The notes beneath the pieces are model-generated. The model was not told the origin of the DNA. It was given only the letters and a program-made list of their open reading frames with translations, and made no database searches. A program made the position numbers and the translations under genes. This document shows positions 5,100-60,622 of a stretch of DNA of 64,000 nucleotides, one piece after another. Location: positions 75,351 through 139,350 of the forward strand of contig JANSYM010000003.1 of assembly GCA_024742355.1 (NCBI GenBank), given 5' to 3'. Position 1 is the stretch's first letter. Each line of letters starts with the position of its first letter. Source of the stretch: Hyphomonadaceae bacterium. GTDB taxonomy: Bacteria; Pseudomonadota; Alphaproteobacteria; Caulobacterales; Hyphomonadaceae.

Positions 5100-6437
5100 A
5101 TGACCCAACCTGTTGTTCGTTTCGCTCCTTCTCCGACTGGCAAACTGCATGTCGGCAATGTCCGCACCGCGCTGATCAATTGGCTGTTCGCGAAAGGGCA
5201 GGGCGGGACCTTTATCCTGCGCATTGATGACACCGACACAGAGCGCTCCACGGCTGCCTATGAGCAAGGCATTCGCGATGATCTCACCTGGCTCGGCCTG
5301 ACCTGGGACAAGACGTTCAAACAGTCCGAGCGGTTCGACCAGTATGACGCCGCCGCCGAAAAGCTGCGTGAAATGGGTCGGCTTTATGCCTGTTACGAAA
5401 CCGCCGATGAACTGGATCGTCAGCGCAAGTTGCAACGCGCGCGTGGCAAGCCGCCGGTCTATAACCGTGCCGGGCTGGAGCTCACCGATGCGGAGAAGGC
5501 CGCTTATGTAGCCGAAGGGCGCAAGCCGCATTGGCGCTTCAAACTGAGCGGGGAGCGTATCGTCTGGAATGACCTGGTGCGCGGCGAGCAGGCGATTGAT
5601 ACAAGCTCGCTGTCTGACCCGGTTCTGATCCGCGCCGATGGCTCCTATCTCTACACGCTGCCAAGCTGCGTCGATGATATTGAGGCCGGCATCACGCATG
5701 TCGTGCGCGGCGAGGACCACGTTACCAATTCCGGCGCGCAGATCGAGATTTTCAAGGCCCTGGGCGGCACCGCGCCGGGCATGGCGCACACGCCGCTTCT
5801 GGTCGGGGCGGATGGTGCGTCGCTGTCGAAACGCCTCGGCTCGCTGGGCATGGGCGAGCTGCGCAGCCAGGGCATTGAACCCCTGGCCATCTGTTCGCTG
5901 CTCGGCAAGCTCGGCACCAGCGACAATGTCGAAATTCGCGAGTCGCTGGCCCAGCTGGCCGAGGAATTTTCGTTCGACAAGATTGGCCGCGCCCCAGCCA
6001 GATTTGACGAGGCCGAGCTGAGAAGCCTCAACGCTTCCATTACCCACAATCTGTCCTTTGCCGAGGCGCAAGACCGCCTCGCGGCGATTGATGCGAACGC
6101 CGCGAATGAAGCCTTCTGGCTGCTGGTGCGTGAGAATTGCGAGACAATTGAAGATGCTGCCCGGTTTGTCCCGGTGGCGTTTGGCGATATCGATCCGGTG
6201 GTCGATGCCGAGGATCGCGACTTCATCACCGCCGCAGCCGGGCTGTTGCCGGATGGCGAGATCACCAGCGAGACCTGGGGCGCCTGGACCTCTGCTCTGA
6301 AAACGGAAACCGGGCGCAAAGGCAAAGGCCTGTTCATGCCTTTGCGCAAAGCACTGACCGGCATGGAACGCGGCCCGAGCGTCGGCGATATGCTGGTCCT
6401 GATGGGCCGCGACCGGGCGCTCAAGCGTCTCGCTTAA
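5100..6437 (+). CDS. gltX: Glutamate--tRNA ligase
   Basis: RFAPSPTGKLHVGN (HIGH), LRIDDTD, RGEDH and LSKR motifs. Confidence 0.95.
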   Translation: MTQPVVRFAPSPTGKLHVGNVRTALINWLFAKGQGGTFILRIDDTDTERSTAAYEQGIRDDLTWLGLTWDKTFKQSERFDQYDAAAEKLREMGRLYACYETADELDRQRKLQRARGKPPVYNRAGLELTDAEKAAYVAEGRKPHWRFKLSGERIVWNDLVRGEQAIDTSSLSDPVLIRADGSYLYTLPSCVDDIEAGITHVVRGEDHVTNSGAQIEIFKALGGTAPGMAHTPLLVGADGASLSKRLGSLGMGELRSQGIEPLAICSLLGKLGTSDNVEIRESLAQLAEEFSFDKIGRAPARFDEAELRSLNASITHNLSFAEAQDRLAAIDANAANEAFWLLVRENCETIEDAARFVPVAFGDIDPVVDAEDRDFITAAAGLLPDGEITSETWGAWTSALKTETGRKGKGLFMPLRKALTGMERGPSVGDMLVLMGRDRALKRLA

Positions 6438-6458
6438 ACACGCATAAGACGTCGCGAA

Positions 6459-7640
6459 TCAGGCATGCACACGGGCTTCTGGCCACAGGCGCAGGAAGTT
6501 CTCGGTATAGAATTGCGACTTCACGCTTTCGCTCATCTCGCCGATCGATTGTTCGAACTTGCCGATCGGGTCACGGCCGCCTTCGACATGTGGATAGTCG
6601 GATGAGAACAGGTATAGGTCCGGGGACGACTCCTCGATCAGCACGCCGACATCCTCGACCGGGAAGGGCGTGAAGCCCATTTGCGCGGTGAGCTGTTCGG
6701 ATGGCTTGCGCTCGAACCGCAGCGTTTCGTCGACGCGCCCATAGACACGAGTGACCCAATCCAAACGGCGCAAGAGTTCAGGCACCCATCCGGCGCCGAG
6801 TTCCACGGCCGCGCCGCGCAAGCCGCGATGACGCTCGAACAAGCCATCGATCAGCATCATGGACAGGAAGGCCTCGACTGGCTGGTGCAGCACGGCGGCG
6901 TCCTTGGTGCGGACATTCTCGCCGCCGCCCATCCAGTCGCGCACGGCGGCGCGGCCATTATTGCTCCAGGATTTCAGCGCTTGCAGCGGCGAGCCGCCAA
7001 CGTGCAGGACGAAAGGCACACCGGCCTCGGCAAGCCGGGCCCAGAACGGCTCCAGGTCGACATGGCCGGGCGCAAAGCCGATCGGCGCGCGATGCGGCAC
7101 CCAGATCGCTTCCATGCCGCTTTCGAGCGCGAATTCAAGCTCCTGGATCGCCAGCTCGGGCGTATCGAGCGGGACAATGCCGACGCCCATCAGCCGCGCA
7201 TCGTCAGCGCAGAAATCGGCCATGTGTCGATTGTGCGCGCGGGTGGCGGCATAGCGCAGCTTCGAGTCTGTCTTCGAACTCGGATGAAATGGAAAGGCGA
7301 CAGAATGGGTGGCGAAGACCAGCTGTTTTTGGAAGCCAAGCAAGTCCATGGCCTTTGACCGGTCGTCGCGATTGAAGGCACCGAGTGCCTGGATTTCCTT
7401 GGACTTGGCGATCAGCGTGTCGCCGAGGGCAATCTGGTCGTCGACATGTTGCTGCGAGTGCCGGCCGCCCTGATCCATGATCACCGCGACTTCCTCATCG
7501 GTGACCAGAGAGGCGGAATAGTTCACTTCCGGAATGTCATCCCGCACGTCCGGATCGGCATATTTCTTCAGAAAATCCGGTAGCTCCATGATGTGGCTGT
7601 CGGCATCATAGATGGCTCTGTTGTCTGGTGCATAGGCCAT
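6459..7640 (-). CDS. Amidohydrolase family 2 protein
   Basis: DADSH, FVLHVGG, VELGAGW and FSSDYPH motifs. Confidence 0.85.
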   Translation of the reverse strand: MAYAPDNRAIYDADSHIMELPDFLKKYADPDVRDDIPEVNYSASLVTDEEVAVIMDQGGRHSQQHVDDQIALGDTLIAKSKEIQALGAFNRDDRSKAMDLLGFQKQLVFATHSVAFPFHPSSKTDSKLRYAATRAHNRHMADFCADDARLMGVGIVPLDTPELAIQELEFALESGMEAIWVPHRAPIGFAPGHVDLEPFWARLAEAGVPFVLHVGGSPLQALKSWSNNGRAAVRDWMGGGENVRTKDAAVLHQPVEAFLSMMLIDGLFERHRGLRGAAVELGAGWVPELLRRLDWVTRVYGRVDETLRFERKPSEQLTAQMGFTPFPVEDVGVLIEESSPDLYLFSSDYPHVEGGRDPIGKFEQSIGEMSESVKSQFYTENFLRLWPEARVHA

Positions 7641-7737
7641 GTCCCGTCCTTCCCTGCGTTGGTTGCAGGGGAGCGTAGGGAGTCAATTCCGAGTGAGCAA
7701 GTGACAAGGCGGGCGCGGTCGCGACTGCGCCGCGCGC

Positions 7738-8301
7738 CTAGTCGCCCAGCTTCACCACGCGATCGCAGAGCGCCTGGATCGAGGCTTCCGGTGTCTGTTC
7801 GTGAACCAGCGCGGCGCGGAATTCCTGCGGCGTGAACTTGCCGTCAATGATATGGTCCATGAGCTCGAAGAAAGGCGTCCAGAAGCCGTCTTCGTCGAGA
7901 AAGGCCATCGGCTTGGCGTGCAGGCCGAGGCGGGCCCAGCTCAACATCTCGACCGCTTCTTCCAGGGTGCCGATACCGCCGGGCAGAACGATGAAGGCAT
8001 CGCTTTCGTCAAACATACGCTGCTTGCGCGTGTGCATGTCATCGACAATCTCGTGCGGGACTTCTTCGAAGATGCGTTCCTTCTGCAGCAGGAAGCGCGG
8101 CATGATGCCGAGCACCTCGCCGCCATCTGAATGCACGGCCCGCGCACAGGCGCCCATCAGGCCAACGCCGCCGCCGCCATAGACCAGGCGGATATTCTTC
8201 TGGGCCAGCGTCCGCCCGAGATCCTGCGCCAGGCGCAGATATTCAGGCTTCACATCATTGGAGGAGCCACAATACACACAAACAGACTTCAATCCCGTCA
8301 T
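7738..8301 (-). CDS. LOG family nucleotide phosphoribohydrolase (TIGR00730)
   Basis: VCVYCGS, LVYGGG.GLMG, MHTRK and PGGIGTLEE motifs. Confidence 0.92.
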   Translation of the reverse strand: MTGLKSVCVYCGSSNDVKPEYLRLAQDLGRTLAQKNIRLVYGGGGVGLMGACARAVHSDGGEVLGIMPRFLLQKERIFEEVPHEIVDDMHTRKQRMFDESDAFIVLPGGIGTLEEAVEMLSWARLGLHAKPMAFLDEDGFWTPFFELMDHIIDGKFTPQEFRAALVHEQTPEASIQALCDRVVKLGD

Positions 8302-8428
8302 TCATCTTGCCTCTGATTCAAACCGGACGAGCCTTAAAGGACTTTCACGGCGAAAACCAGAAAAAAGCTGTCATGGCATCGCGATTTTCCACCTGCAATC
8401 GCATACGTAAAAACACCTGTGGCAAAAC

Positions 8429-8471
8429 TGCGACTGATTTGCATTTTCGTCCTAGTTGCGATTGATTTTCA
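8429..8471 (+). promoter_or_regulatory. Two tandem Fur-box-like sites
   Basis: TGCGACTGATTTGCA (8429-8443) and TGCGATTGATTTTCA (8457-8471), 28-bp period, upstream of a TonB-dependent receptor. Confidence 0.6.
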
Positions 8472-8522
8472 TTTACGGGTCTTTTAAGCGGGCGCATCAG
8501 ATAATTTTAGGTAGTCCTCACA

Positions 8523-10709
8523 ATGACCTCTTTCTCCTCCCAGTTGCTCCGCACAGCGGCCCTGTCGCTGGTTCTGGCAACCCCTGTCGCCATGGCAGAC
8601 ACACCTGACGACGAAGCCTATGACGACGTCTATGTACAGGACGAAATCGTCGTGGTCGGACATTACCTCTATGCTGACCAGGTCAACGCGCTGAAGACGC
8701 CGACCCCGATCATCGACGTGCCGCAAAGCCTGAGCATTGTGACGGCTGACCAGATCCTCGAGCGCGGCTTTGACAGTGTCGCCGACATCATCTCCTACAC
8801 GCCCGGCGTCAATGCCACGCAAGGCGAGGGACACCGGGATGCGGTTGTGTTTCGCGGCGTTCGGTCGACCGCTGACTTCTTCGTCGATGGGGTACGCGAC
8901 GATGTTCAGTATTACCGCCCGCTCTACAATCTCGAACAGGTCGAGATCCTGCGCGGGCCGAACGCGCTGCTCTTTGGCCGCGGCGGCACGGGCGGCATCC
9001 TCAATCGCGTGACCAAGAAGGGCGTCGTTGGCGAGACCTTCAATCAGTACCAGGCGAGCCTCGACACTTTTGGCGGGTTCGCGGCGCAGATCGACAGCAA
9101 TTTTGCGACAAACGACACCTCCGCGTTCCGCATCAACGCCTATTATGAGAGCCTGGAAGGGCACCGCGACTTCTACGAAGGCGACAATTACGGCATCAAC
9201 CCGACCGCGCGTTTCGAGCTTGGCCCGGACACGACGCTGGACCTGTCCTATGAGTATCTCAATCATGAGCGTTTCATCGATCGCGGGATTCCAACCGGTG
9301 CGGATGGCCGCCCGGTCGAGGCGTTTGATGAGATTGTGTTCGGCGATCCTGAGCTGAACACAGCCGAATTCGAAGCCAATATCCTGCGCGCGAACCTGTC
9401 GCACGCCTTTTCCGATGCATTGAAGGGCAATGTCGTCGTCGCGTATGGCGATTATGACAAGCTGTATCAGAACTTTTACGCGTCGGATTATGTTCCGGAG
9501 ACTCGACCAAACTATGTTACATTGGATGGTTACGTTGACACCACGCAGCGCCAACGCCTGACGCTCGCGGGAAACCTTGTCGGCGAGTTTGAAACCGGAC
9601 AGATTGGTCACACACTGATTGTTGGTGCCGAGTACCTGGATACCAGCAACGATAATGACCGTTTTAACGCACGCTGGGATACCACGGATGACGATAACGA
9701 GATTTTTCTCATCGGCCGGCCGCTCGATCTAAGCGGAGGCGCGGGTACTGGGTTCGGTACTGTGCTGGCTGAAGGATCGGAAGTCCTGAACGGCCCTGCA
9801 GTCGCCACGCGGAACGATTTCTTCGCAGCCGGCTCGCTGAACGACCGCACCGAGAGTGAGATCGAGGTAATGTCGATCTTTGTGCAGGACCAGATCGAGA
9901 TCAATCCGTATTTCGACATCGTTCTCGGCGCCCGCTTTGACAGTTTTGACCAGAGCACGGTCAATCTGTTCGATCCGGCCAACCCGACGACAGCGTCGCG
10001 CACCGACGAGATGGTCTCGCCGCGCCTCGGCGCGATTTACAAGCCAATGGAAAATGTCTCCATTTATGCCAGCTATAGCGAGGCCTTCCTGCCGCGCTCG
10101 GGCGAGCAGTTTGCCAGCACAGGCAGCCTCGATCCGGATGAGTTCGAGCAGGCCGAAATCGGCGTCAAATGGGACTTTACGCAGGGCATGAGCTTCACCG
10201 CCGCCTATTTCCAGAATGATCAGACCCGAGCCGATCGCGACGATCAGACGGGTGAAGGCTTCGAAGAGCGCGGTCTCGAAGTTGAAGGCTTCGAATTGCA
10301 GCTGCAAGGCCAGCTGACCGAGCAGTTCTATCTGACCGCCGGCTACAGCTATCTTGAAGGCGAAACCGACAATGGTGCAGAGCTGCCACGCGAACTGCCT
10401 GAAAACACGTTCTCGGTCTGGGGCAATTACCAGGTCACGGATCGTTTCGGCCTGGGATTTGGCGCCACCTATCAGGACGAATCGTTCATTACCGACTTTG
10501 ATATTGGTTCCACCGGGCCGCATCCGACGCTGCCGAGCTATACGCGGTTTGACGCAGCGGCTTATTACGAGCTCAGCGACGATGTTCGGGTTCAGCTCAA
10601 CATCGAGAACCTGACGGATGAGACCTATTTCCCAAGCGCGCACAGCACGCATCAGGTCACCGTCGGCGCACCGCTCAGTGCCCGGATCGCGATTAGCGGA
10701 CGCTTCTAG
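8523..10709 (+). CDS. TonB-dependent receptor, siderophore (Fiu-like) class
   Basis: Signal peptide, TonB box DEIVVVG, EQVEILRGPNALLFGRGGTGGILNRVTK, NLTDETY and terminal Phe. Confidence 0.93.
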   Translation: MTSFSSQLLRTAALSLVLATPVAMADTPDDEAYDDVYVQDEIVVVGHYLYADQVNALKTPTPIIDVPQSLSIVTADQILERGFDSVADIISYTPGVNATQGEGHRDAVVFRGVRSTADFFVDGVRDDVQYYRPLYNLEQVEILRGPNALLFGRGGTGGILNRVTKKGVVGETFNQYQASLDTFGGFAAQIDSNFATNDTSAFRINAYYESLEGHRDFYEGDNYGINPTARFELGPDTTLDLSYEYLNHERFIDRGIPTGADGRPVEAFDEIVFGDPELNTAEFEANILRANLSHAFSDALKGNVVVAYGDYDKLYQNFYASDYVPETRPNYVTLDGYVDTTQRQRLTLAGNLVGEFETGQIGHTLIVGAEYLDTSNDNDRFNARWDTTDDDNEIFLIGRPLDLSGGAGTGFGTVLAEGSEVLNGPAVATRNDFFAAGSLNDRTESEIEVMSIFVQDQIEINPYFDIVLGARFDSFDQSTVNLFDPANPTTASRTDEMVSPRLGAIYKPMENVSIYASYSEAFLPRSGEQFASTGSLDPDEFEQAEIGVKWDFTQGMSFTAAYFQNDQTRADRDDQTGEGFEERGLEVEGFELQLQGQLTEQFYLTAGYSYLEGETDNGAELPRELPENTFSVWGNYQVTDRFGLGFGATYQDESFITDFDIGSTGPHPTLPSYTRFDAAAYYELSDDVRVQLNIENLTDETYFPSAHSTHQVTVGAPLSARIAISGRF

Positions 10710-20013: not shown

Positions 20014-20027
20014 TTGATCGCGATCAA
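20014..20027. promoter_or_regulatory. FNR/FixK-type box
   Basis: Perfect TTGAT-CGCG-ATCAA, 62 nt upstream of the SIMPL gene start. Confidence 0.6.
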
Positions 20028-20089
20028 TGGCTCTGGACAAAGTACGTTCGTTATTTCATAATGTAATAATGTTATATTTGGAGGTGAGT

Positions 20090-20872
20090 ATGATCCATAA
20101 ACCCCTGATTTGTTTCGCCATGGCGTTTGCATTGACGCCCGTCGCTCAGGTTCAGGAACAAGAGGTGGAGACCAGCGAACCAGGTTTCATTGAGGTCTAC
20201 GCGATCGGTCGAGCCGAGCGAGCGCCGAGCCACTTTGTCGTAAATGCCACTTTGCAGATCCGGCGCGAACAACGCGAGAAAGCCAGTCGCGAACTGGAAG
20301 CCTTCACCAACAAAGTCGGAAGTGAGGTTGATCGGATTAGCGGCTTGACCAGTCTGCAGATTGAAACCGAACAGCTCTCTACGAGCGCGGAGCGTTCCAA
20401 AAAATGCCAACGCGGCGGCCCCTTGTTTGGGTCGAAGGATGGGGAGTGCGCGCCGATCGGCTACAATGCCTATGTTCGCTACCGGATTGAGGGTTCCCCG
20501 GCAGACAAAGCTGGCGACGTCGTGTCGTTTCTGGAACAAGTCGAGGATAGCGAAAACCAGATTGCCGGTTTCTTCTACGAACAAACCGAACAAGCGACCC
20601 AGGCAGCGCGGGCAGACGCTATTCGCCGCGCGGTCGCCAATGCCAGGACTTTGGCCAATGGTGCAAATGTCAGGCTTGGCAAGATCATTTCCATACAAGA
20701 AGGGGTGACCGCGCCGCGATCGATGCAGCGTGCATACGCGGTCGCGCCGTCGAACCTGGCCAATGACAATATGCGGCGAGTCGCGCGTCAGCCGCGCTTC
20801 GAAATCTCAGCCAATCCGAAGCTTCAGGAATTTCGCGTTGGAGTCACGCTCCGTATTGAAATCGAGCAATAG
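20090..20872 (+). CDS. SIMPL (DUF541) domain exported protein
   Basis: Signal peptide; ARADAIRRAVANARTLANGANVRLGKIISIQEG; GGAGG RBS. Confidence 0.8.
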   Translation: MIHKPLICFAMAFALTPVAQVQEQEVETSEPGFIEVYAIGRAERAPSHFVVNATLQIRREQREKASRELEAFTNKVGSEVDRISGLTSLQIETEQLSTSAERSKKCQRGGPLFGSKDGECAPIGYNAYVRYRIEGSPADKAGDVVSFLEQVEDSENQIAGFFYEQTEQATQAARADAIRRAVANARTLANGANVRLGKIISIQEGVTAPRSMQRAYAVAPSNLANDNMRRVARQPRFEISANPKLQEFRVGVTLRIEIEQ

Positions 20873-53415: not shown

Positions 53416-54645
53416 TCAGATGAGGCCGAACGAAAACAGTGCGACGCAGGTCACGAGCCCGGTGACTGGAACAAAAATCGGAACTTGAAACCCAATCGCT
53501 GTTCTCTGTTCGCGCCGCTTCAGAAAAATCAATGACAGGTTCACGATCGCGAATATAGCCAATGCGACTTGGGACGTAAGTTCTGCGAGGCGTTCGATGG
53601 CTACAAACAGGCTGAGCGCAAGGACAATCGCGGCGACCAGGATGGTAGCCACCAGAGGGGTCTTGGTTTGCGGGTGAATGTAGCCGAGTTGGGCCGGTAA
53701 TTGGTTCTGTTTAGATAGACCATATATCACGCGTGAAGACATGATCATCTGAATGAGAACGCCATTCAGGGTCGCGACAGACGCGATCAAATTAAACCCG
53801 CCTCGCAGAGCGGGCGAAGCGTCCGTGAACATCAGGTTCAAAGGTGCCGCAGATTGCGATAGTGCGTCGATTGGTACGATCAAAACGACCACAGAAACGA
53901 CAGCAAGATAGAGCAATGTTGCCAGAACCAGCGTCCAGATAATTGCGCGTGGCATGTTGCGATCGGGGTTGATCGCCTCTTCAGCAATGTTGGCTAGGTC
54001 TTCAAATCCGACAAACGCAAAGAAGGCGAGCAGGCTGGCGGCGCCGATACCTAACCATACCTGGCCCTCCAGCGGCGGAACAAGCCGGTCGAGCTGCAGC
54101 AGGATTTCGGGATTTCCGCCTAGTCCATACATAAGTACGAGAAGCAATCCGATGATTTCCAGAACTGTGAACACCGCCGCCATCGTCACAGATTCCAAAA
54201 CGCCTAATATGGCGACGCCACCCAATACAAAAGCAATGAGGAAGGTCAGAATGCGCGAATCAACGCTTGTCAGATCCTGCAAGTAAGCACTCGCGCCGAC
54301 CATGATCGCCGATGAGGAAATGATCCCGACCGAAGCCACCAGCAAGCCGACCAATAAGGCAATCCGTTTTGATCGAAGGCCCGCGTCGACATAGGCAGCC
54401 TCTCCGGCGCTTACCGGAAATCTGGCACTGAGTTCAGCATAGGAAAATCCGGTGAACGAAACCACGATCGCAGCCGCCAGGAATGCAACGGGTGCGTAAG
54501 TACCAGCGTGCGCGGCGGTCGTGCCGACCAACACGTAGATTCCCGCTCCAACGGTGACTCCAAGACCGTACAGAATGAGCAAGGGGAGAGTCAGGCGACG
54601 GCTTAGGTGTGGTTCGGTTGAGTTGGGGGTTTGGGGTGTCGACAT
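53416..54645 (-). CDS. APC family amino acid permease
   Basis: LYGLGVTVGAGIY, YAELSARFP..AGEAAY and FAFVGFED motifs; about 12 TM helices. Confidence 0.9.
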   Translation of the reverse strand: MSTPQTPNSTEPHLSRRLTLPLLILYGLGVTVGAGIYVLVGTTAAHAGTYAPVAFLAAAIVVSFTGFSYAELSARFPVSAGEAAYVDAGLRSKRIALLVGLLVASVGIISSSAIMVGASAYLQDLTSVDSRILTFLIAFVLGGVAILGVLESVTMAAVFTVLEIIGLLLVLMYGLGGNPEILLQLDRLVPPLEGQVWLGIGAASLLAFFAFVGFEDLANIAEEAINPDRNMPRAIIWTLVLATLLYLAVVSVVVLIVPIDALSQSAAPLNLMFTDASPALRGGFNLIASVATLNGVLIQMIMSSRVIYGLSKQNQLPAQLGYIHPQTKTPLVATILVAAIVLALSLFVAIERLAELTSQVALAIFAIVNLSLIFLKRREQRTAIGFQVPIFVPVTGLVTCVALFSFGLI

Positions 54646-54701: not shown

Positions 54702-54736
54702 TTGATGCGCATCAAATTCGAATTGATGTCGATCAA
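54702..54736. promoter_or_regulatory. Two perfect tandem FNR/FixK-type boxes
   Basis: TTGAT-GCGC-ATCAA (54702-54715) and TTGAT-GTCG-ATCAA (54723-54736). Confidence 0.8.
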
Positions 54737-54964
54737 AACCGTTGGCCCTGTGTGCTCTAGGTTAGATGTGTTGCTGTGAAATATCGTGGCTATTCCTGCG
54801 TCCTTCTTACGCAATCATGGGGTTCGCTCCATCACGGTGGCTTGCAGGCAACACAGGCGCACGTGGCGGATTGGTGCACGAAGCAAGCGAATCCCACCAG
54901 CTCGCCGCGTGCCGCTCTGGTGACGTGTGTTTTGGATGCGGAGTGCAATCCCATCGAGGCGAAA

Positions 54965-55417
54965 ATGAGTGTGACTGGGCTTAGTAAGATTGATGACACC
55001 GTGCACACTACCAATGTGTGGTTGAAGCAAATCATGACTGCGTGTCACTGGACGGAACGTCAGGATGCTTATCGCGCGCTGCGCGTAACCCTGCATGCGT
55101 TGCGAGATCATCTTCCAATTGAATCCGTCGCGCATCTTTCGGCGCAACTTCCGACGCTTATTCGGGGCCTGTTTTTCGAAGGCTGGAGGCCTGGGCGAGC
55201 CGAATCCCCCGGACGCGATCTGGAGTCTTTTATCCAGCCCATCGAGGACGCGTTTGATCGGTATCCCGGTGTCGATTCTGAACATGTGGCGCGCGCGGTT
55301 TTCGAAACAATGTGCAGCCACATATCGGAGGGCGAAGTGCATCATGTTGAACGCGCTCTACCGCGACGGGTCCGCCGAATGATCGTCTCCGAAGACCAGG
55401 AACTATCGTCCCGCTGA
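54965..55417 (+). CDS. DUF2267 domain protein
   Basis: TVHTTNVWL, AYRALRVTLHALRD.L, HLSAQLP.LIRG.F.EGW motifs. Confidence 0.88.
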   Translation: MSVTGLSKIDDTVHTTNVWLKQIMTACHWTERQDAYRALRVTLHALRDHLPIESVAHLSAQLPTLIRGLFFEGWRPGRAESPGRDLESFIQPIEDAFDRYPGVDSEHVARAVFETMCSHISEGEVHHVERALPRRVRRMIVSEDQELSSR

Positions 55418-56296
55418 TTTGATGATCGCTTTTGAAAGTTGGTTGGCGATTGCGATTGTTGAGTTTGGACCGAGCACCGTTTCAGTCGCCGCCACTGCCT
55501 GCACGCCCTCTGAGGCGAAGCTTTCGAGAACTTCAATTGCTGCAAGACAATGTGTTGCGCAGCAAAGGATCTTAGCGTCCGGATAGGCCAGATGGCATCG
55601 GCGCACCGTTTGAAGCATCGTCGCGCCTGAAGAGATAATATCATCAACGAGAACGATTGTATGTTCGTTGAAGTCGGTGAGGTCGGGAAGAGAGATTTCC
55701 ACATCCCGATCCCCGCGGCGTATCTTGCGCAGCGTTTGATATGGTGCCTGCAGGTGTCCCGCGATTTTGCGCACCCATTGCTCGCTTTCGATGTCGGGCC
55801 CGACAATCATCGATTTCCCAGAGTGGCTGGAAATCCACCCAGCGATAGGCTCATCTGCGGATACACAATACGTCGGGATCTCGTAAACTTCATCGAGCGT
55901 TTGGTAGCGATGGAGATGAGGATCAACGGTGATCAGGCGGTCGAAGTTGTGTGAGATTAGTTTGGCAAAGGCTGCCGCACTGACGATTTCACCAGGATTG
56001 AACGCGATGTCCTGGCGCATATAGGGCAGGTAGGGTGAAACCAGCGTCACGCTCTTCGCGCCTTGTTGGCGGAATCCGTTCGCAAGCATCAATACGTGCA
56101 AAAGCTTGGCATCGGGATTATCCAGCCTGGCCACCAGGAAAATGTCCTGATTTTCGACAGTGTCGAGAATTCGAAAAAGCGTTTCACCGTCCGGAAACCG
56201 GTGCAGATCGAGTCGACCGAGGGGAATGCCGGATGCGCCGGCAATGTCTTCGGCAAGAGACTGCGCGCCCGCGCCACTGAAAATCATCTTGGTCAT
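55403..56296 (-). CDS. Ribose-phosphate diphosphokinase-like protein (accessory, phosphorylase-associated type)
   Basis: HRFPDGE, PYLPYMRQD, VDPHLHR, GPDIESEQW and VDDIISSGAT (PRPP-binding loop). Confidence 0.88.
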   Translation of the reverse strand: MTKMIFSGAGAQSLAEDIAGASGIPLGRLDLHRFPDGETLFRILDTVENQDIFLVARLDNPDAKLLHVLMLANGFRQQGAKSVTLVSPYLPYMRQDIAFNPGEIVSAAAFAKLISHNFDRLITVDPHLHRYQTLDEVYEIPTYCVSADEPIAGWISSHSGKSMIVGPDIESEQWVRKIAGHLQAPYQTLRKIRRGDRDVEISLPDLTDFNEHTIVLVDDIISSGATMLQTVRRCHLAYPDAKILCCATHCLAAIEVLESFASEGVQAVAATETVLGPNSTIAIANQLSKAIIKSAGR

Positions 56297-57807
56297 GGCG
56301 ATGTCAGTTCCACGATTCCCGGATTCGCGTCGATGAAGTCGAGTGCGTATGCCAATTCGCCCGGGGATTGGGTGTGCAGTGTAAAAAGAGCGTCACCCTG
56401 CGCTACCGCGTCTCCCAAATAGACATGTAAGTCGATCCCCGCCGCCACATCCTCGGGCGCGCCAGCCAGTTTTGCAGCTTTGGCAAGCCGTCGATTGTCA
56501 ATTCGCGCCACTCGGCCAGGGCGCGGCGCTATGATGGCGCGCTGGTGTTCGGCCACGGGCGGCGACGCGAGCCGTCCCTGGGCTTTGCAAATGGCTTCGA
56601 AATGGGCGTTCGCCGCTCCGGAAGCGAGGGTTTCTCGAGCCCGTTGCGTGCCTTGCGCAGGTTTCGCCGCGCCGGTGAGCTCCAGCAGAGCCCCAGACAG
56701 CACGCAGGCGCGGTCGCGTAATTCCGGTGGTGCATTAGCTTCGTTTCTCAGCACTGCCAGAACGTCGCGCGCTTCCAATGACGGTCCTATGCCGCGGCCA
56801 ACCGGTTGGGTTCCATCTGTGATCTCGACGCTGATCTTGATATCGAAGTGGGCGGCGATGGCTTCGAAGTGTTGGCGAAGTGACTCCGCGGCTTCAGCGC
56901 TGCGAACTTTTGCGGTTGGGCCAACTGGGATGTCGATGACCAGATGAGTGGCACCGGCAGCGATCTTCTTCGACAGCACCGACGCAATGAGGGGACCTTC
57001 GCTGTCCAGGTCCAGCGCTTTCTGGATGCGAATGAGCGTGTCGTCGGCAGGACTGAAATTGACACTCCCGCCCCAGACAAAACATGCCTGTTCCCGCGTC
57101 AGGACGGCCTTCATGTCGGAGAGGGATAAACTCACATTTGTAATAGTACTCATTGTGTCCGCCGTACCCGCTGGCGAGGTGATCGCCTTCGACGATGTCT
57201 TCGGCATGGTCAGGCCGTTTGCGGCAGCAATTGCGACAACGATTGGCGTTGTGCGATTTCCCGGCAGCCCGCCGACACAATGCTTGTCAGCGATAATGCT
57301 TGCGTCCCAATCCAAACGGCTGCCGGAATCAACCATGGCGCGGGTCAGAGCGATGGTTTCATCATCGTCCAGAATACGCGCTGAACAGGCGGTTACAAAT
57401 GCCGTGAGCTGTATGTCAGAATACCGGCCATGGACGATGTCATCGATGATTTGCCGGGCGGTGTTCTCCGTCAGCTTTTGCCCGAAAATCTTTCCCCGGA
57501 CATCTGCAAAAGACGACAGAGGAGCCGGATGCGATATCGTAAGCGTCTCCGCGCCTTCAAGGTGCAAGCGTTTCCAGGCAATCTCGGACAGTCCGATCTC
57601 CTCCGCGCCAACCAGATTGCTCGTCACGTAGTGCAAAGTGGCGAAGATCTCGGCGGCGCCGTTCTTCAACAAGACACGCGAATGGGCTGAAAACCCTTCG
57701 GATTTGCACGCGGCACAGTCTTGCTGCACGAATGCAATGGCTTCGTGTTGAGAGTCTATTCCGAGTCGCCGCGCCGTCAGAACCGGTCGTCCATCATCAG
57801 TGCTCAT
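56293..57807 (-). CDS. Archaeal-type NMP/AMP phosphorylase homolog (TIGR02645-like thymidine phosphorylase family)
   Basis: Extra N-terminal domain (RRLGID...CKSEGF); DKHCVGGLPGNRTT, KTSSKAITSPAGTADTM, SVLSKK and QPVGRGIGP motifs. Confidence 0.88.
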   Translation of the reverse strand: MSTDDGRPVLTARRLGIDSQHEAIAFVQQDCAACKSEGFSAHSRVLLKNGAAEIFATLHYVTSNLVGAEEIGLSEIAWKRLHLEGAETLTISHPAPLSSFADVRGKIFGQKLTENTARQIIDDIVHGRYSDIQLTAFVTACSARILDDDETIALTRAMVDSGSRLDWDASIIADKHCVGGLPGNRTTPIVVAIAAANGLTMPKTSSKAITSPAGTADTMSTITNVSLSLSDMKAVLTREQACFVWGGSVNFSPADDTLIRIQKALDLDSEGPLIASVLSKKIAAGATHLVIDIPVGPTAKVRSAEAAESLRQHFEAIAAHFDIKISVEITDGTQPVGRGIGPSLEARDVLAVLRNEANAPPELRDRACVLSGALLELTGAAKPAQGTQRARETLASGAANAHFEAICKAQGRLASPPVAEHQRAIIAPRPGRVARIDNRRLAKAAKLAGAPEDVAAGIDLHVYLGDAVAQGDALFTLHTQSPGELAYALDFIDANPGIVELTSP

Positions 57808-59168
57808 GTCAGTTCCACGCGTTCATTATGCTCGGCAACTGTGACATGCCAGTTTTTCCGTTCTTCAATCAGGTGTCGTAGACTATCGGCAGCGTCGGGT
57901 TCGCCGTGGACGATGAACGTTTCTCTGGGAGGTTTGGAAAACCCGTTCAGCCATTCCAGGATCTCGGTTCGATCTGCGTGCGCGGACAACATGTGCAGGT
58001 TCGCGACTTCTGCTCGAACGGGATAGTATTGGCCATGAATTTTGATTTCCTGCGCCCCCTCTAGCATATGCGCTCCGCGCGTTCCGCCAGCTTGGAAACC
58101 CGCGAAGAGAATGGTGTTCCGGGGATCCCCCGCATAAGCCTTCAGATGAAAGAGAATACGACCACCTGTGGCCATTCCGCTTGCGGAAATGATGATTTTC
58201 TGTTCGCTATCAAGGTCCAGAGACTTTGAGTCTTCGGTGCTGCGTGTGAACGTGGCGAGGCCGCATGCCGCTCGCGCTTGCTTGGGCGTCAGGCGCAAAC
58301 CGTCTGTGTGGCGACAGAAAATGTCGCTGGCATCTATCGCCATTGGACTGTCCAAAAAGACCGGTAAATCGGGAATCTCCTGGCGCCCTATCAAGTTGCG
58401 CAAGTGAAATAACAACGCCTGCGCACGTCCGACGGCAAAAGATGGGATGATCACTGACCCGCCGCGCTTGGCGGTTCGGTTGATGATTTCTGCCAACGCT
58501 TGCTCCGCGTCCATGTCAGGGTGATCGCGATTGCCATAAGTCGACTCAAGGAACAGATAGTCCGCTGCGACGATTTTTGCGGGTCTATCCATGATAAGAT
58601 TGTCGAGCCGGCCGAGATCGCCCGAAAACACGAGTTTTTTGCCGTCAGCGTCAACTTCAACAATGGCGGCGCCGAGGATGTGACCGGCAACGTGGAACCT
58701 GATCCGGATGTCCTTTGTCACCTGCACCCAGCTGCCAAACTGATGAGACTGGAGGCTTGGCAATGCCATTTCAGCTTGTTTTTTGTCATATAGCGGGCGC
58801 GCTGGTTTGTGCCGCGTGTAGCCGCCCCGATTTGCGGCTTTCGCCTCTCGCTCTTGCAGGTATCCGCTATCGAGCCACAGAATATCGCACAGCGCGCGGG
58901 TGCCTTCCGTGCAGTGTACCAAGCCGGTGAATCCGTTCGCGACCATGACCGGGACGTAGCCCGAATGGTCCAAATGGGCATGCGTCAGGACAACCGCATC
59001 AATATCTTTTGGGTCGATTGCGAGTGGTTTCCAATTGCGCAGGCGCAACTGTTTGTAGCCTTGAAACAGACCACAATCGACCAGGATGCGCTGTGTGTCG
59101 ACTTCAATCAGAAACTTCGAACCCGTGACGGTGCCGGCGCCGCCGAGAAATCGAACAGACAGATTCAT
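57804..59168 (-). CDS. MBL-fold beta-CASP ribonuclease-like protein
   Basis: THAHLDHSG, AGHILG, SGDLG, ESTYG, PSFAVGRAQ, SASGMATGGR, SAHAD and VHGE motifs. Confidence 0.92.
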   Translation of the reverse strand: MNLSVRFLGGAGTVTGSKFLIEVDTQRILVDCGLFQGYKQLRLRNWKPLAIDPKDIDAVVLTHAHLDHSGYVPVMVANGFTGLVHCTEGTRALCDILWLDSGYLQEREAKAANRGGYTRHKPARPLYDKKQAEMALPSLQSHQFGSWVQVTKDIRIRFHVAGHILGAAIVEVDADGKKLVFSGDLGRLDNLIMDRPAKIVAADYLFLESTYGNRDHPDMDAEQALAEIINRTAKRGGSVIIPSFAVGRAQALLFHLRNLIGRQEIPDLPVFLDSPMAIDASDIFCRHTDGLRLTPKQARAACGLATFTRSTEDSKSLDLDSEQKIIISASGMATGGRILFHLKAYAGDPRNTILFAGFQAGGTRGAHMLEGAQEIKIHGQYYPVRAEVANLHMLSAHADRTEILEWLNGFSKPPRETFIVHGEPDAADSLRHLIEERKNWHVTVAEHNERVELT

Positions 59169-59230
59169 CTGGCGTGCCTCCCAACAAACAGTTGCAGCTT
59201 ACGAATTACGAACCTAGCAGAAAATTTCGC

Positions 59231-59244
59231 TTGATCAGGATCAA
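59231..59244. promoter_or_regulatory. Perfect FNR/FixK-type box in a divergent promoter
   Basis: TTGAT-CAGG-ATCAA between the beta-CASP start (59168) and the cytochrome c start (59302). Confidence 0.8.
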
Positions 59245-59301: not shown

Positions 59302-59640
59302 TTGAAACTTGTATTTACATCTTTCGGGATTGCGCTCGCAATGGCCGTCGCATGCGCGCCTGCGCCTGAAGCGGTGTCCGGTGAAGCCTCTGGTGAGGTT
59401 TTGGCCAAACGCCTGTGCGCGGGGTGTCATGCTGTGGGTGTCGACGATGCAAGTCGACATTCCAGCGCGCCGCCATTTCGTGCCCTGTCGGATTCCTATC
59501 CGGTGGAATACCTGGCAGAAGCGTTGGCAGAAGGCATAATCGTCGGCCATCCCGACATGCCGGTTTTCGAAATGAGTCCGGGCCAGATCGACGGCTTTTT
59601 GCTGTATCTGGAAGATCTCCAGGAGGCGCCGTCAGACTAG
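59302..59640 (+). CDS. Small monoheme cytochrome c lipoprotein
   Basis: AGGAGG RBS and TTG start; lipobox AVAC; CAGCH; GHPDMP (distal Met). Confidence 0.88.
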   Translation: MKLVFTSFGIALAMAVACAPAPEAVSGEASGEVLAKRLCAGCHAVGVDDASRHSSAPPFRALSDSYPVEYLAEALAEGIIVGHPDMPVFEMSPGQIDGFLLYLEDLQEAPSD

Positions 59641-59676: not shown

Positions 59677-59690
59677 TTGAACTGGATCAA
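59677..59690. promoter_or_regulatory. FNR/FixK-type box
   Basis: TTGAA-CTGG-ATCAA (one mismatch), 56 nt upstream of the USP gene. Confidence 0.65.
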
Positions 59691-59746
59691 TTCCAGACCT
59701 CCAAAAAGGGATCAGAGTACCGGCACGAAAGATGGAGGCTTCGGAT

Positions 59747-60622
59747 ATGAGTTACAAGACACTTCTCGCGCCGTTGCAGTTCAAAGAAACGGCTGAAGCG
59801 ATTATGAGCAGCGCTATGGTGGTGGCGAATGAGTTTGGCAGCCATGTGCATGCCAAACATGTCAGAGCACCCTTTGTTGCCTTCGCGCCTTACGCCTATC
59901 ACACGATCAGCATGGCGACGGCGCCTGTCATGGTGTCGGAACAGTTTGATGCTGCAACAGCCGAACATGCCGCAGCACTGAAGAGCATTTTTGAGTCCGA
60001 GTGCAAACGTAGGGCGCTGCGCATTGTGCCTTTCAGCGAAGGTTGCGCCAGCCCGAAGAAGTCGGCTTCCTGGAGCGACACAACCGGTCCGGTTATCCAG
60101 AGCATGGCTCACTTTGGCCGGGTCTGCGATTTGTCGATCGTTACCCTCCCGGACAAGGGCAATGAACGGCGGGACACGCCGCTGTTTGAAGGGCTTCTCA
60201 TGGCTTCTGGGCGCCCCGTTCTTGTGGTTCCCATCGATGGGCTAAAACGGATTCCGAAGCGGGTTCTCGTCGCTTGGGACGGTAGTTTGCCAGCGACCCG
60301 AGCCCTGCAACTGGCCTTGCCGCTGCTGGGCGCCGCCGATCAAGTGTTTGTGGCGACGGTTGGGGAAGTTGATTTTGGAATGCCCGATGCAGAAGACGCC
60401 GCCTCTTTTCTCGCCAGTCACGCGATCAATGCAGAAGCCCGAACTGTGGACTGGCCGAAGAAGCCGATTGCCGAACGCCTGATGAACCAGGCGGAAGCGA
60501 CAAATAGTGAGCTCATCGTGATGGGTGGATACTCTCACACGCGTCTCTATGAAACGCTCCTGGGCGGTACAACGCGCCACATGCTGGCGCACGCCGACCG
60601 CGCGCTGTTCCTCGCGCATTGA
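59747..60622 (+). CDS. Universal stress protein (tandem domains)
   Basis: SGRPVLVVP, VLVAWDGS..ATRAL and LIVMGGYSHTRL.E..LGGTTR motifs. Confidence 0.92.
   Translation: MSYKTLLAPLQFKETAEAIMSSAMVVANEFGSHVHAKHVRAPFVAFAPYAYHTISMATAPVMVSEQFDAATAEHAAALKSIFESECKRRALRIVPFSEGCASPKKSASWSDTTGPVIQSMAHFGRVCDLSIVTLPDKGNERRDTPLFEGLLMASGRPVLVVPIDGLKRIPKRVLVAWDGSLPATRALQLALPLLGAADQVFVATVGEVDFGMPDAEDAASFLASHAINAEARTVDWPKKPIAERLMNQAEATNSELIVMGGYSHTRLYETLLGGTTRHMLAHADRALFLAH

Follow-up and report, generated by a model that had tools for sequence, protein, structure and literature searches.

What does a bacterium do with a relative of archaeal adenosine monophosphate (AMP) phosphorylase when the archaeal downstream enzymes are missing from its surroundings? 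The question is raised by a 64-kb stretch of a Hyphomonadaceae bacterium (assembly GCA_024742355.1, contig JANSYM010000003.1, forward-strand positions 75,351 to 139,350; hereafter the window, on whose whole length positions are counted), in which such a phosphorylase is encoded between a beta-CASP nuclease and a protein resembling phosphoribosyl pyrophosphate (PRPP) synthetase (Prs). The three minus-strand genes are joined by 4-bp start/stop overlaps (nuclease/phosphorylase at 57804-57807, phosphorylase/Prs-like at 56293-56296) and preceded by a perfect FNR/FixK-type box 62 nt upstream of the first start codon, a layout noticed in a preliminary description of this DNA and confirmed here from the open reading frame (ORF) coordinates and the sequence. 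No internal promoter or terminator signal above chance was found inside the trio, which is a translationally coupled operon. The explanation that we consider best, and hold with moderate confidence, is that an FNR/FixK-type activator switches on this operon at low oxygen and that its products salvage the ribose and phosphate of nucleotides. The interpretation first put forward, a hypoxic RNA-recycling pathway, is partly supported. The main features are as follows:

59231-59244, read on the minus strand: FNR/FixK-type palindromic box TTGATCCTGATCAA, a perfect TTGAT-N4-ATCAA
57804-59168, minus strand: nuclease gene, first of the trio, 454 amino acids
56293-57807, minus strand: phosphorylase gene, second of the trio, 504 amino acids
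55403-56296, minus strand: Prs-like gene, third of the trio, 297 amino acids

Products of the coupled operon

The phosphorylase comprises the Pfam domains Glycos_trans_3N, Glycos_transf_3 and PYNP_C and passes two NCBIfam models, NF003338 (a 'thymidine phosphorylase' subfamily; 644.5 bits, cutoff 434) and TIGR02645 (557.9 bits, cutoff 434.6). The equivalogs of classical thymidine phosphorylase (TP) and pyrimidine-nucleoside phosphorylase (PyNP) were not reached (NF004490, 201 vs 269; TIGR02643, 132 vs 571; NF004747, 148 vs 559). Positions 2-483 of the AMP_phos profile align to residues 10-491 of the protein, and the alignments of the TP and PyNP profiles begin only near residues 104-106; the phosphorylase therefore has in common with the archaeal enzyme an extra N-terminal domain. 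The best solved relative was the AMP phosphorylase of Thermococcus kodakarensis (4GA5/4GA6, 318 bits, the 4GA5 alignment beginning at residue 50), and identity to the characterized archaeal enzyme is ~47%. Both the archaeal-type N-terminal domain and the affinity to AMP phosphorylases, as claimed in the preliminary description, are thus borne out by the AMP_phos alignment and the match to 4GA5/4GA6. Homology to T. kodakarensis TK0353 (PDB 4GA4-4GA6) extends over the full length, including the N-terminal domain, and the two share the motifs DxH[S/C]xGGxPGN[K/R]T and PKTSS[R/K]AITSxAGTAD, which in the translation read DKHCVGGLPGNRT and PKTSSKAITS. Unlike the archaeal enzyme, this phosphorylase is bacterial, often plasmid-borne and coupled to a Prs-like gene, with no ribose-1,5-bisphosphate (R15P) isomerase or type III RuBisCO partner found nearby.

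It had been remarked that the window reads KTSSK where the family usually has KTSSR. This is true of the sequence, but it is not a family trait: since the consensus of the bacterial clade is KTSSR, the Lys is a local substitution, and KTSSK was rejected as a specificity signature. As far as the sequences go, the real clade-specific feature is the Cys of the DKHC motif, not KTSSK. Several cysteines of the phosphorylase are conserved (C34, C242 and C407 in at least 95% and C141 and C177, the latter being the Cys of DKHC, in 80-95% of homologues), C31 and C34 forming a partly conserved N-terminal CxxC; they may indicate sensitivity to redox state or metals.

The Prs-like protein consists of Pribosyltran_N and Pribosyltran domains. 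It scores above the cutoffs of NF005537 (the PRK07199 subfamily; 329.8, cutoff 322) and TIGR01251 (185.7, cutoff 113) and below cutoff on all class I Prs equivalogs. Across 81 Prs-like homologues the FPDGE, RQD and VDPHLH motifs are kept, as are the K-x-R-x-GD loop and DDIISSGxT. Family models above cutoff and these intact catalytic elements together indicate membership of the Prs family, and from the conserved motifs the enzyme would seem to be active and to bind a ribose-5-phosphate (R5P) moiety. The substrate of classical Prs is R5P, not R15P. The Prs-like protein is class-III-like: its best solved relative is the class III Prs of Methanocaldococcus jannaschii (1U9Y, 143 bits; also 1U9Z), which belongs to the same length class and has in common with it the FxDGE and RQD motifs, the K-x-R loop and the DDIIS[ST]G.T ribose-5-phosphate loop; no class I regulatory features are evident in the Prs-like protein. 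In contrast to the M. jannaschii enzyme, the present clade falls in the separate NCBIfam subfamily PRK07199, is genetically tied to the phosphorylase and carries VDPHLHR and K-x-R-x-GDRDV signatures. The conversion of R15P and ATP to PRPP and ADP, proposed in the preliminary description for the Prs-like protein, is known from Escherichia coli PhnN (ribose-1,5-bisphosphate phosphokinase), which has an unrelated P-loop kinase fold; a motif heuristic found no PhnN-like gene in the window or the related loci.

The nuclease combines the motifs of a metallo-beta-lactamase domain with the Beta-Casp insertion and a C-terminal RMMBL domain, as expected of the beta-CASP subfamily (Pfam Lactamase_B, 56.6 bits, cutoff 22.7; Beta-Casp, 109 bits, cutoff 27.7; RMMBL, 66.9 bits, cutoff 21.6). 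The HxHxDH (THAHLDH), SAHAD and VHGE motifs reported earlier are present in the translation and were also aligned to TTHA0252, and the regions bearing them are conserved over 64 homologues. The best solved relative was the Thermus thermophilus RNase TTHA0252 (full length, 245 bits), followed by Cas14 and archaeal or eukaryotic CPSF-type nucleases. With TTHA0252 and the archaeal aCPSF-type enzymes the protein shares a three-domain architecture, the metal-binding motifs and a full-length alignment, and this homology suggests a ribonuclease of the beta-CASP metallo-beta-lactamase fold. Unlike these relatives, the nuclease of the window sits in a nucleotide-metabolism operon under predicted FNR-type control.

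The FNR/FixK-type box and probable low-oxygen control

The sequence marks of an FNR/FixK promoter, namely TTGAT-N4-ATCAA upstream of the first gene, occurrence beyond chance and conservation, are present. The window contains 4 exact copies of the box where 0.05 would be expected, a number reached in 0 of 100 shuffles, and 7 copies with at most one mismatch where 1.8 would be expected. When the promoter of the window was aligned with those of four relatives (loci L001, L002, L003 and L012), the box was the only conserved island: it is identical in the window, L001 and L002, L003 keeps both half-sites, and it is lost in Henriciella L012 (73% identity). Its centre lies 69.5 nt upstream of the nuclease ATG (59168), and 69.5-71.5 nt from the start codon across close relatives (79-90% identity). 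Two further features of this region bear on how the box may work:

59205-59210, minus strand: candidate -10 element CGTAAT, ~27-32 nt downstream of the box centre, read from the sequence
59302-59640, plus strand: small CxxCH ORF, 112 amino acids; its haem-binding motif reads CAGCH and its N-terminus resembles a signal peptide

The distance of the candidate -10 element, whose TAAT core is partly conserved in the promoter alignment, would fit the geometry of a class II FNR promoter, and taken with the 69.5-nt spacing to the ATG it is compatible with a site near -41.5 of the transcription start. No independent sigma-70 -35/-10 pair was found upstream of the nuclease, as expected of an activator-dependent promoter. 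The box shares its divergent intergenic region with the small CxxCH ORF, which has no Pfam match at 1e-5 and could be co-regulated from the same box. This ORF is kept in L001 and absent from L002 and L003, in both of which the genes upstream of the box are co-oriented with the operon; because of this co-orientation, the absence of the ORF and the retained spacing, the box is best assigned to the nuclease operon. The co-oriented genes of these two relatives (L002:1323-4566 and L003:1279-4517) encode a Lon-related protease of ~845 amino acids (LonB-like, 104 bits, below cutoff) and a protein of ~235 amino acids without a family match; the gene for the latter ends exactly at the FNR-type box.

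Beyond close relatives, boxes were surveyed within 300 nt upstream of 66 loci collected with a Bradyrhizobium homologue as seed, mostly from Hyphomicrobiales and other Alphaproteobacteria; here as in the surveys below, the best 80 loci of a scan were taken and not a random sample, and neighbourhood counts come from crude ORF calling. Exact TTGA-N6-TCAA was found upstream of 17 of the 66 loci against a background of 3.0% (p ~9e-12), and variants at one position upstream of 26 against 4.9% (p ~2e-17). The idea that the box is confined to the lineage of the window was dropped after this enrichment.

An experimental precedent for low-oxygen control comes from the soybean symbiont Bradyrhizobium diazoefficiens, in which bll3117 (thymidine phosphorylase family), bll3116 (Prs) and bll3115 (metallo-beta-lactamase-fold hydrolase) are induced under microoxia at the transcript (5-15 fold) and protein levels (PMC6515984). 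Loss of fixK2 lowers expression of the predicted operon bll3117-bll3116-bll3115 by 6.6- to 30.6-fold, and a FixK2 box lies in front of it at -74 (PMC9104804); the function of the operon is discussed in neither paper. The same three annotated families thus occur there in one operon that is microoxia-induced and FixK2-dependent, in the order phosphorylase-Prs-nuclease as opposed to nuclease-phosphorylase-Prs in the window, and the published box is imperfect (ATGATCTGGGTCAA) where that of the window is perfect. In the Alphaproteobacteria-rich set, loci L230 and L234 combine the bll3117-3115 gene order with a box at -72/-78, which supports the correspondence between the two trios. Since oxygen regulation has been reported for the corresponding trio, it is not new; a comparative paper on FixK regulons does not mention the trio genes (PMC4999443). 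The low-oxygen lxa locus of Burkholderia was considered as a known home of the trio and rejected, the main text of PMC3721108 naming neither a phosphorylase nor a Prs. The lxa locus of B. cenocepacia contains BCAM0300, a strongly up-regulated 51-kDa metallo-beta-lactamase superfamily protein of the class 'Translation' located near fermentative genes (PMC6127331), which by size and annotation could belong to the same beta-CASP nuclease family, there without the phosphorylase-Prs pair.

Of the 7 boxes with at most one mismatch in the window, 4 (3 of them exact) fall within 52-60 kb; the sites there are in front of a HemG-like flavodoxin region, in the permease/DUF2267 gap, in front of the trio and in front of a tandem universal stress protein (USP) gene. 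Boxes other than that of the trio, and the genes next to them, include:

54702-54715 and 54723-54736: pair of perfect FNR-type boxes in the divergent permease/DUF2267 region, spaced by 21 bp (two helical turns)
53416-54645, minus strand: amino-acid permease gene flanking the box pair
54776-55417, plus strand: DUF2267 gene flanking the box pair
59677-59690: second box near the trio, TTGATCCAGTTCAA, in front of the tandem USP gene and with one mismatch
59732-60622, plus strand: tandem USP gene with a Usp domain (USP hidden Markov model, 313 bits)
20014-20027: fourth perfect box, TTGATCGCGATCAA, outside the 52-60 kb patch, abutting the annotated start of the SIMPL/DUF541 gene
20027-20872, plus strand: SIMPL/DUF541 gene, the annotated start of which abuts the perfect box

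As part of the low-oxygen explanation we propose that in this Henriciella/Hyphomonas-like marine alphaproteobacterium the trio, the tandem USP gene, the DUF2267/permease pair and the HemG-like flavodoxin region make up a small local regulon for low oxygen. The paired boxes at 54702-54736 may provide each flanking gene with its own site or allow cooperative binding, and the true start codon of the SIMPL/DUF541 gene is probably further downstream than annotated. The 3' ends of the Prs-like (minus strand) and DUF2267 (plus strand) genes converge with a 15-bp overlap (55403-55417), and no terminator-like structure was found between them. Elsewhere the window carries ordinary chromosomal genes (glyS, ppdK, nadABC, asd). 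The nearest genomes are metagenome-assembled genomes of Henriciella and Hyphomonas (79-90% phosphorylase protein identity), and phycosphere metagenome runs contain the exact sequence. A search for RNA runs of this organism returned none. In a biofilm metatranscriptome (run X25), two short contigs at least 95% identical to the window were found at 56958-57123 (phosphorylase) and 58879-59100 (nuclease); they hint weakly at transcription of these genes by a close relative living in a biofilm, and carry-over of DNA is possible.

The phosphorylase-Prs pair and its neighbourhoods

Phosphorylase matches were found in at least 595 species, and linkage was counted in 80 species-level loci with a phosphorylase alignment (usable denominators 73 or 76); genome-wide gene densities used as expectation were rough estimates. 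A Prs-like gene is in the locus in 66/73 and directly downstream in 55/76, the nuclease is in the locus in 47/73, and all three genes are present in 44/73. In a reciprocal survey from the Prs-like gene, the phosphorylase lies immediately upstream in 68/78 (~87%) and within 5 kb in 73/80, and the nuclease is present in 42/80. These counts, taken in both directions, identify the phosphorylase-Prs pair as the conserved unit and the nuclease as a frequent accessory (~55-65% of loci). The trio thus recurs, as the preliminary description had stated, but its nuclease is not obligatory. The order nuclease-phosphorylase-Prs dominates in the Alphaproteobacteria-rich set (41/79 loci). Matches on 122 plasmid records mark the module as an accessory and mobile one, and because Prs is essential, we infer that the Prs-like gene is not the housekeeping one. 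A 5.6-kb contig binned as 'uncultured Thermoplasmatales archaeon' (L026, CAYXGD010000151.1) encodes a phosphorylase 55% identical to that of the window; this is the identity level of proteobacterial homologues, and the contig is either a mis-binned bacterial one or the result of transfer.

Genes recurring around the cluster in the 80 loci were:

36/80 loci: P-type ATPases, the commonest neighbour
18/80 loci: USPs
16/80 loci: phosphoketolase-like protein
11/80 loci: acetate kinase
10/80 loci: ICMT/PEMT
8/80 loci: type II (archaeal-type) glyceraldehyde-3-phosphate dehydrogenase (GAPDH), in Bacteroidota
7/80 loci: D-2-hydroxyacid dehydrogenase
6/80 loci: nitroreductase
6/80 loci: DUF6629

The flavour of these neighbourhoods is one of stress and fermentation, and the module appears to travel on mobile stress/metal islands and plasmids. 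The P-type ATPases (for example in L004, L005, L007 and L009) are of the heavy-metal HMA or the Ca/Mg type, often directly adjacent and accompanied by DUF2933, ICMT/PEMT, a cupredoxin, CopC/D or an N-type ATPase operon. In 14-16 of the 80 loci the phosphoketolase-like protein, a thiamine pyrophosphate enzyme of ~790 amino acids, is encoded inside the operon in the order Prs - XFP-like - nuclease - phosphorylase (L074:6244-8622 and L005:11450-13819; also L066, L068 and L072 at ~6200-8600). It scores ~145 bits against NCBIfam phosphoketolase cutoffs of 777-1518, with a partial Pfam XFP_N match and no XFP_C match reported, and represents a divergent, apparently uncharacterized subfamily that may act on a substrate other than xylulose 5-phosphate or fructose 6-phosphate. 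Clusters in Bacteroidota (L037, L049, L056, L060-L062 and L070) are flanked by a genuine type II GAPDH (450 bits), D-2-hydroxyacid dehydrogenase and a tandem USP, and a 280-residue protein with an Mrr-like nuclease domain is encoded immediately ahead of the nuclease gene. These neighbours, taken with the archaeal affinities that each of the three operon proteins shows, hint at an old transfer of an archaeal-type module.

The partners of the archaeal pathway, R15P isomerase and type III RuBisCO, were searched for in the neighbourhoods by a heuristic using RuBisCO-L and IF-2B-family motifs. No signature of either was found in the window, in agreement with the preliminary description, or in 91 related loci, and no gene cluster present in at least 6 loci resembles them.

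Possible roles of the pair

The low-oxygen salvage explanation would proceed in four steps. When oxygen is limiting, an FNR/FixK-type activator would bind the box centred ~70 nt upstream of the first start and switch on transcription of the operon; the presence, conservation and enrichment of the box are observed, and activation is suggested by the B. diazoefficiens precedent. As an accessory step, the TTHA0252-type RNase would degrade RNA toward nucleoside 5'-monophosphates (NMPs). The AMP-phosphorylase-type enzyme would then convert NMP and phosphate to a free base and R15P, as the ~47% identity to the archaeal enzyme and the common N-terminal domain suggest. Finally, the Prs-like enzyme would turn R15P into PRPP or back to R5P, a role to which the tight two-way gene linkage and the intact catalytic motifs point; direct conversion of R15P to PRPP, the original proposal, is one possible form of this step. 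Ribose and phosphate would be re-used or fed to central or fermentative metabolism, and the pair would act as an accessory module, often plasmid-borne, in mobile stress islands.

Several findings weigh against this explanation. The phosphorylase falls below the TIGR03327 AMP_phos equivalog cutoff (454.5 vs 535) and has a Cys in DKHC (C177) where archaeal AMP phosphorylases and TPs have the phosphate-site Ser ('HS' motif), features that, with its clade-specific cysteines, set it apart from the archaeal enzyme; given the missed cutoff and the Cys, its substrate could differ. In the literature searched we found no biochemical study of the bacterial clade and no known activity of any member, and nothing in the sequence of the Prs-like protein indicates a changed specificity toward R15P. 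The nuclease is missing from ~35-45% of clusters, so RNA need not be the source of the nucleotides; RNA recycling is accordingly a weaker reading than processing of nucleotides and phosphoribosyl compounds. The P-type ATPases in 36/80 loci are left unexplained, no functional link being evident. The window yielded no gene for a Crp/Fnr regulator, and such genes near the cluster (5/80 loci) show no clear enrichment. In a taxonomically broad survey, with many Gammaproteobacteria and Bacteroidota among its 76 usable loci, boxes with at most two mismatches occurred upstream of 17/76 against an 18% background and exact TTGA-N6-TCAA upstream of 2/76 against 1.35%, with no enrichment in either case; universal FNR control of the cluster was rejected on this ground. 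The correspondence with bll3115-3117, finally, is drawn from annotation, gene arrangement and homologous loci of the same order. From the two box surveys, FNR/FixK control recurs in Alphaproteobacteria and is not universal for the gene cluster. Within these bounds the FNR-type control proposed earlier is upheld by the conserved footprint, the alphaproteobacterial enrichment and the FixK2-dependent trio of B. diazoefficiens.

The main competing explanation, less probable in our judgement yet to be taken seriously, keeps both activities canonical and links them by AMP: Prs would make PRPP and AMP from R5P and ATP, the phosphorylase would remove the AMP, and the pair would buffer the adenylate energy charge when energy is limiting, a function known for E. 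coli AMP nucleosidase. In a variant, housekeeping adenine phosphoribosyltransferase would complete a route R5P -> PRPP -> AMP -> R15P, of a kind once proposed for archaea, with R15P as end product or signal. The fully canonical catalytic motifs of the Prs-like protein speak for this, as does established enzymology, by which AMP would be the only metabolite common to the two known reactions. It fits the tight phosphorylase-Prs linkage equally, and low-oxygen induction is compatible with energy-charge control. However, it gives the nuclease no role and does not explain what becomes of R15P, since signatures of R15P isomerase, RuBisCO and PhnN were not found nearby; making PRPP at the cost of ATP -> AMP would be odd in an energy-limited cell, and there would be no need of an additional, accessory Prs unless the housekeeping one were inadequate.

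R15P is PRPP without its terminal phosphate, so the chemically closest alternative use of a Prs would be R15P + AMP -> R5P + ADP. In that case the pair would be a RuBisCO-free bacterial counterpart of the archaeal pentose-bisphosphate pathway, an energy-conserving module of nucleotide catabolism with RNA and nucleotides as an anoxic ATP reserve, which we regard as unlikely. Moving the 1-phosphate to AMP would capture the energy of the glycosidic bond as a phosphoanhydride, and R5P would feed two enzymes whose genes are part of the operon or next to it in ~14-20% of the loci surveyed, the divergent phosphoketolase-like protein and acetate kinase.

It is improbable that the operon serves ordinary pyrimidine or thymidine nucleoside salvage, in which the phosphorylase would yield a base and (deoxy)ribose-1-phosphate and the Prs would supply PRPP for salvage of bases. 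The NCBI family name 'thymidine phosphorylase' and a TP/PyNP core homologous at ~200 bits are in its favour, but the cutoffs of the classical equivalogs lie far above the scores obtained, and the phosphorylase aligns end to end with archaeal AMP phosphorylase, N-terminal domain included. The strict pairing with a dedicated, non-housekeeping Prs-like gene also argues against it; such pairing is not known for deoA.

Ranking below this, and quite improbable, is a mobile island for metal or cation stress, in which expression and function of the module would be tied to P-type ATPases and copper-handling genes, for instance by supplying or economizing nucleotides for ATP-driven efflux, and the FNR box would be a local add-on. 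P-type ATPases in 36/80 loci, often adjacent or co-oriented, many plasmid copies, and copper oxidases, cupredoxins, CopC/D and DUF2933/ICMT among the neighbours speak for it. Yet the window has neither a P-type ATPase nor a metal-resistance gene close to the operon, the corresponding genes of B. diazoefficiens are under microoxic FixK2 control, boxes are enriched in Alphaproteobacteria, and location on the same islands may reflect joint mobility only.

Anti-phage defence or abortive infection by nucleotide depletion or nucleic-acid degradation, raised as an alternative in the preliminary description, was rejected and is very improbable: a nuclease with nucleotide-cleaving enzymes resembles nucleotide-depletion defences in outline and defence genes occur occasionally nearby (AbiEii in L009, a TIR protein in L006), but a PADLOC-DB scan gave no significant match (domain-level similarities were marginal, 26 bits to the Avs1a MBL domain and 21 bits to PRTase_III-A, and the phosphorylase had none), the recurrent neighbours are metabolic or stress genes, and the trio is oxygen- and FixK2-regulated in a relative.

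The regulatory part of the low-oxygen salvage explanation is essentially known already from Bradyrhizobium, and its proposed biochemistry concerns a very widespread enzyme pair. An archaeal-type phosphorylase is locked to a Prs-like partner in hundreds of bacterial species and on many plasmids, and is induced by low oxygen in at least one model bacterium. The logic of the archaeal NMP/pentose-bisphosphate pathway would here be combined with a different partner and no RuBisCO; with the archaeal downstream enzymes missing from the neighbourhoods searched, bacteria must treat R15P differently, or the enzymes have other substrates. Experimental systems already exist in the B. diazoefficiens mutants and the FixK2 toolkit, and resolving the fate of R15P would close a real gap in what is understood of nucleotide and pentose metabolism. 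The answer could also show how aerobes that do not ferment meet their maintenance costs in hypoxia, in nodules, biofilms, phycospheres and infection sites.

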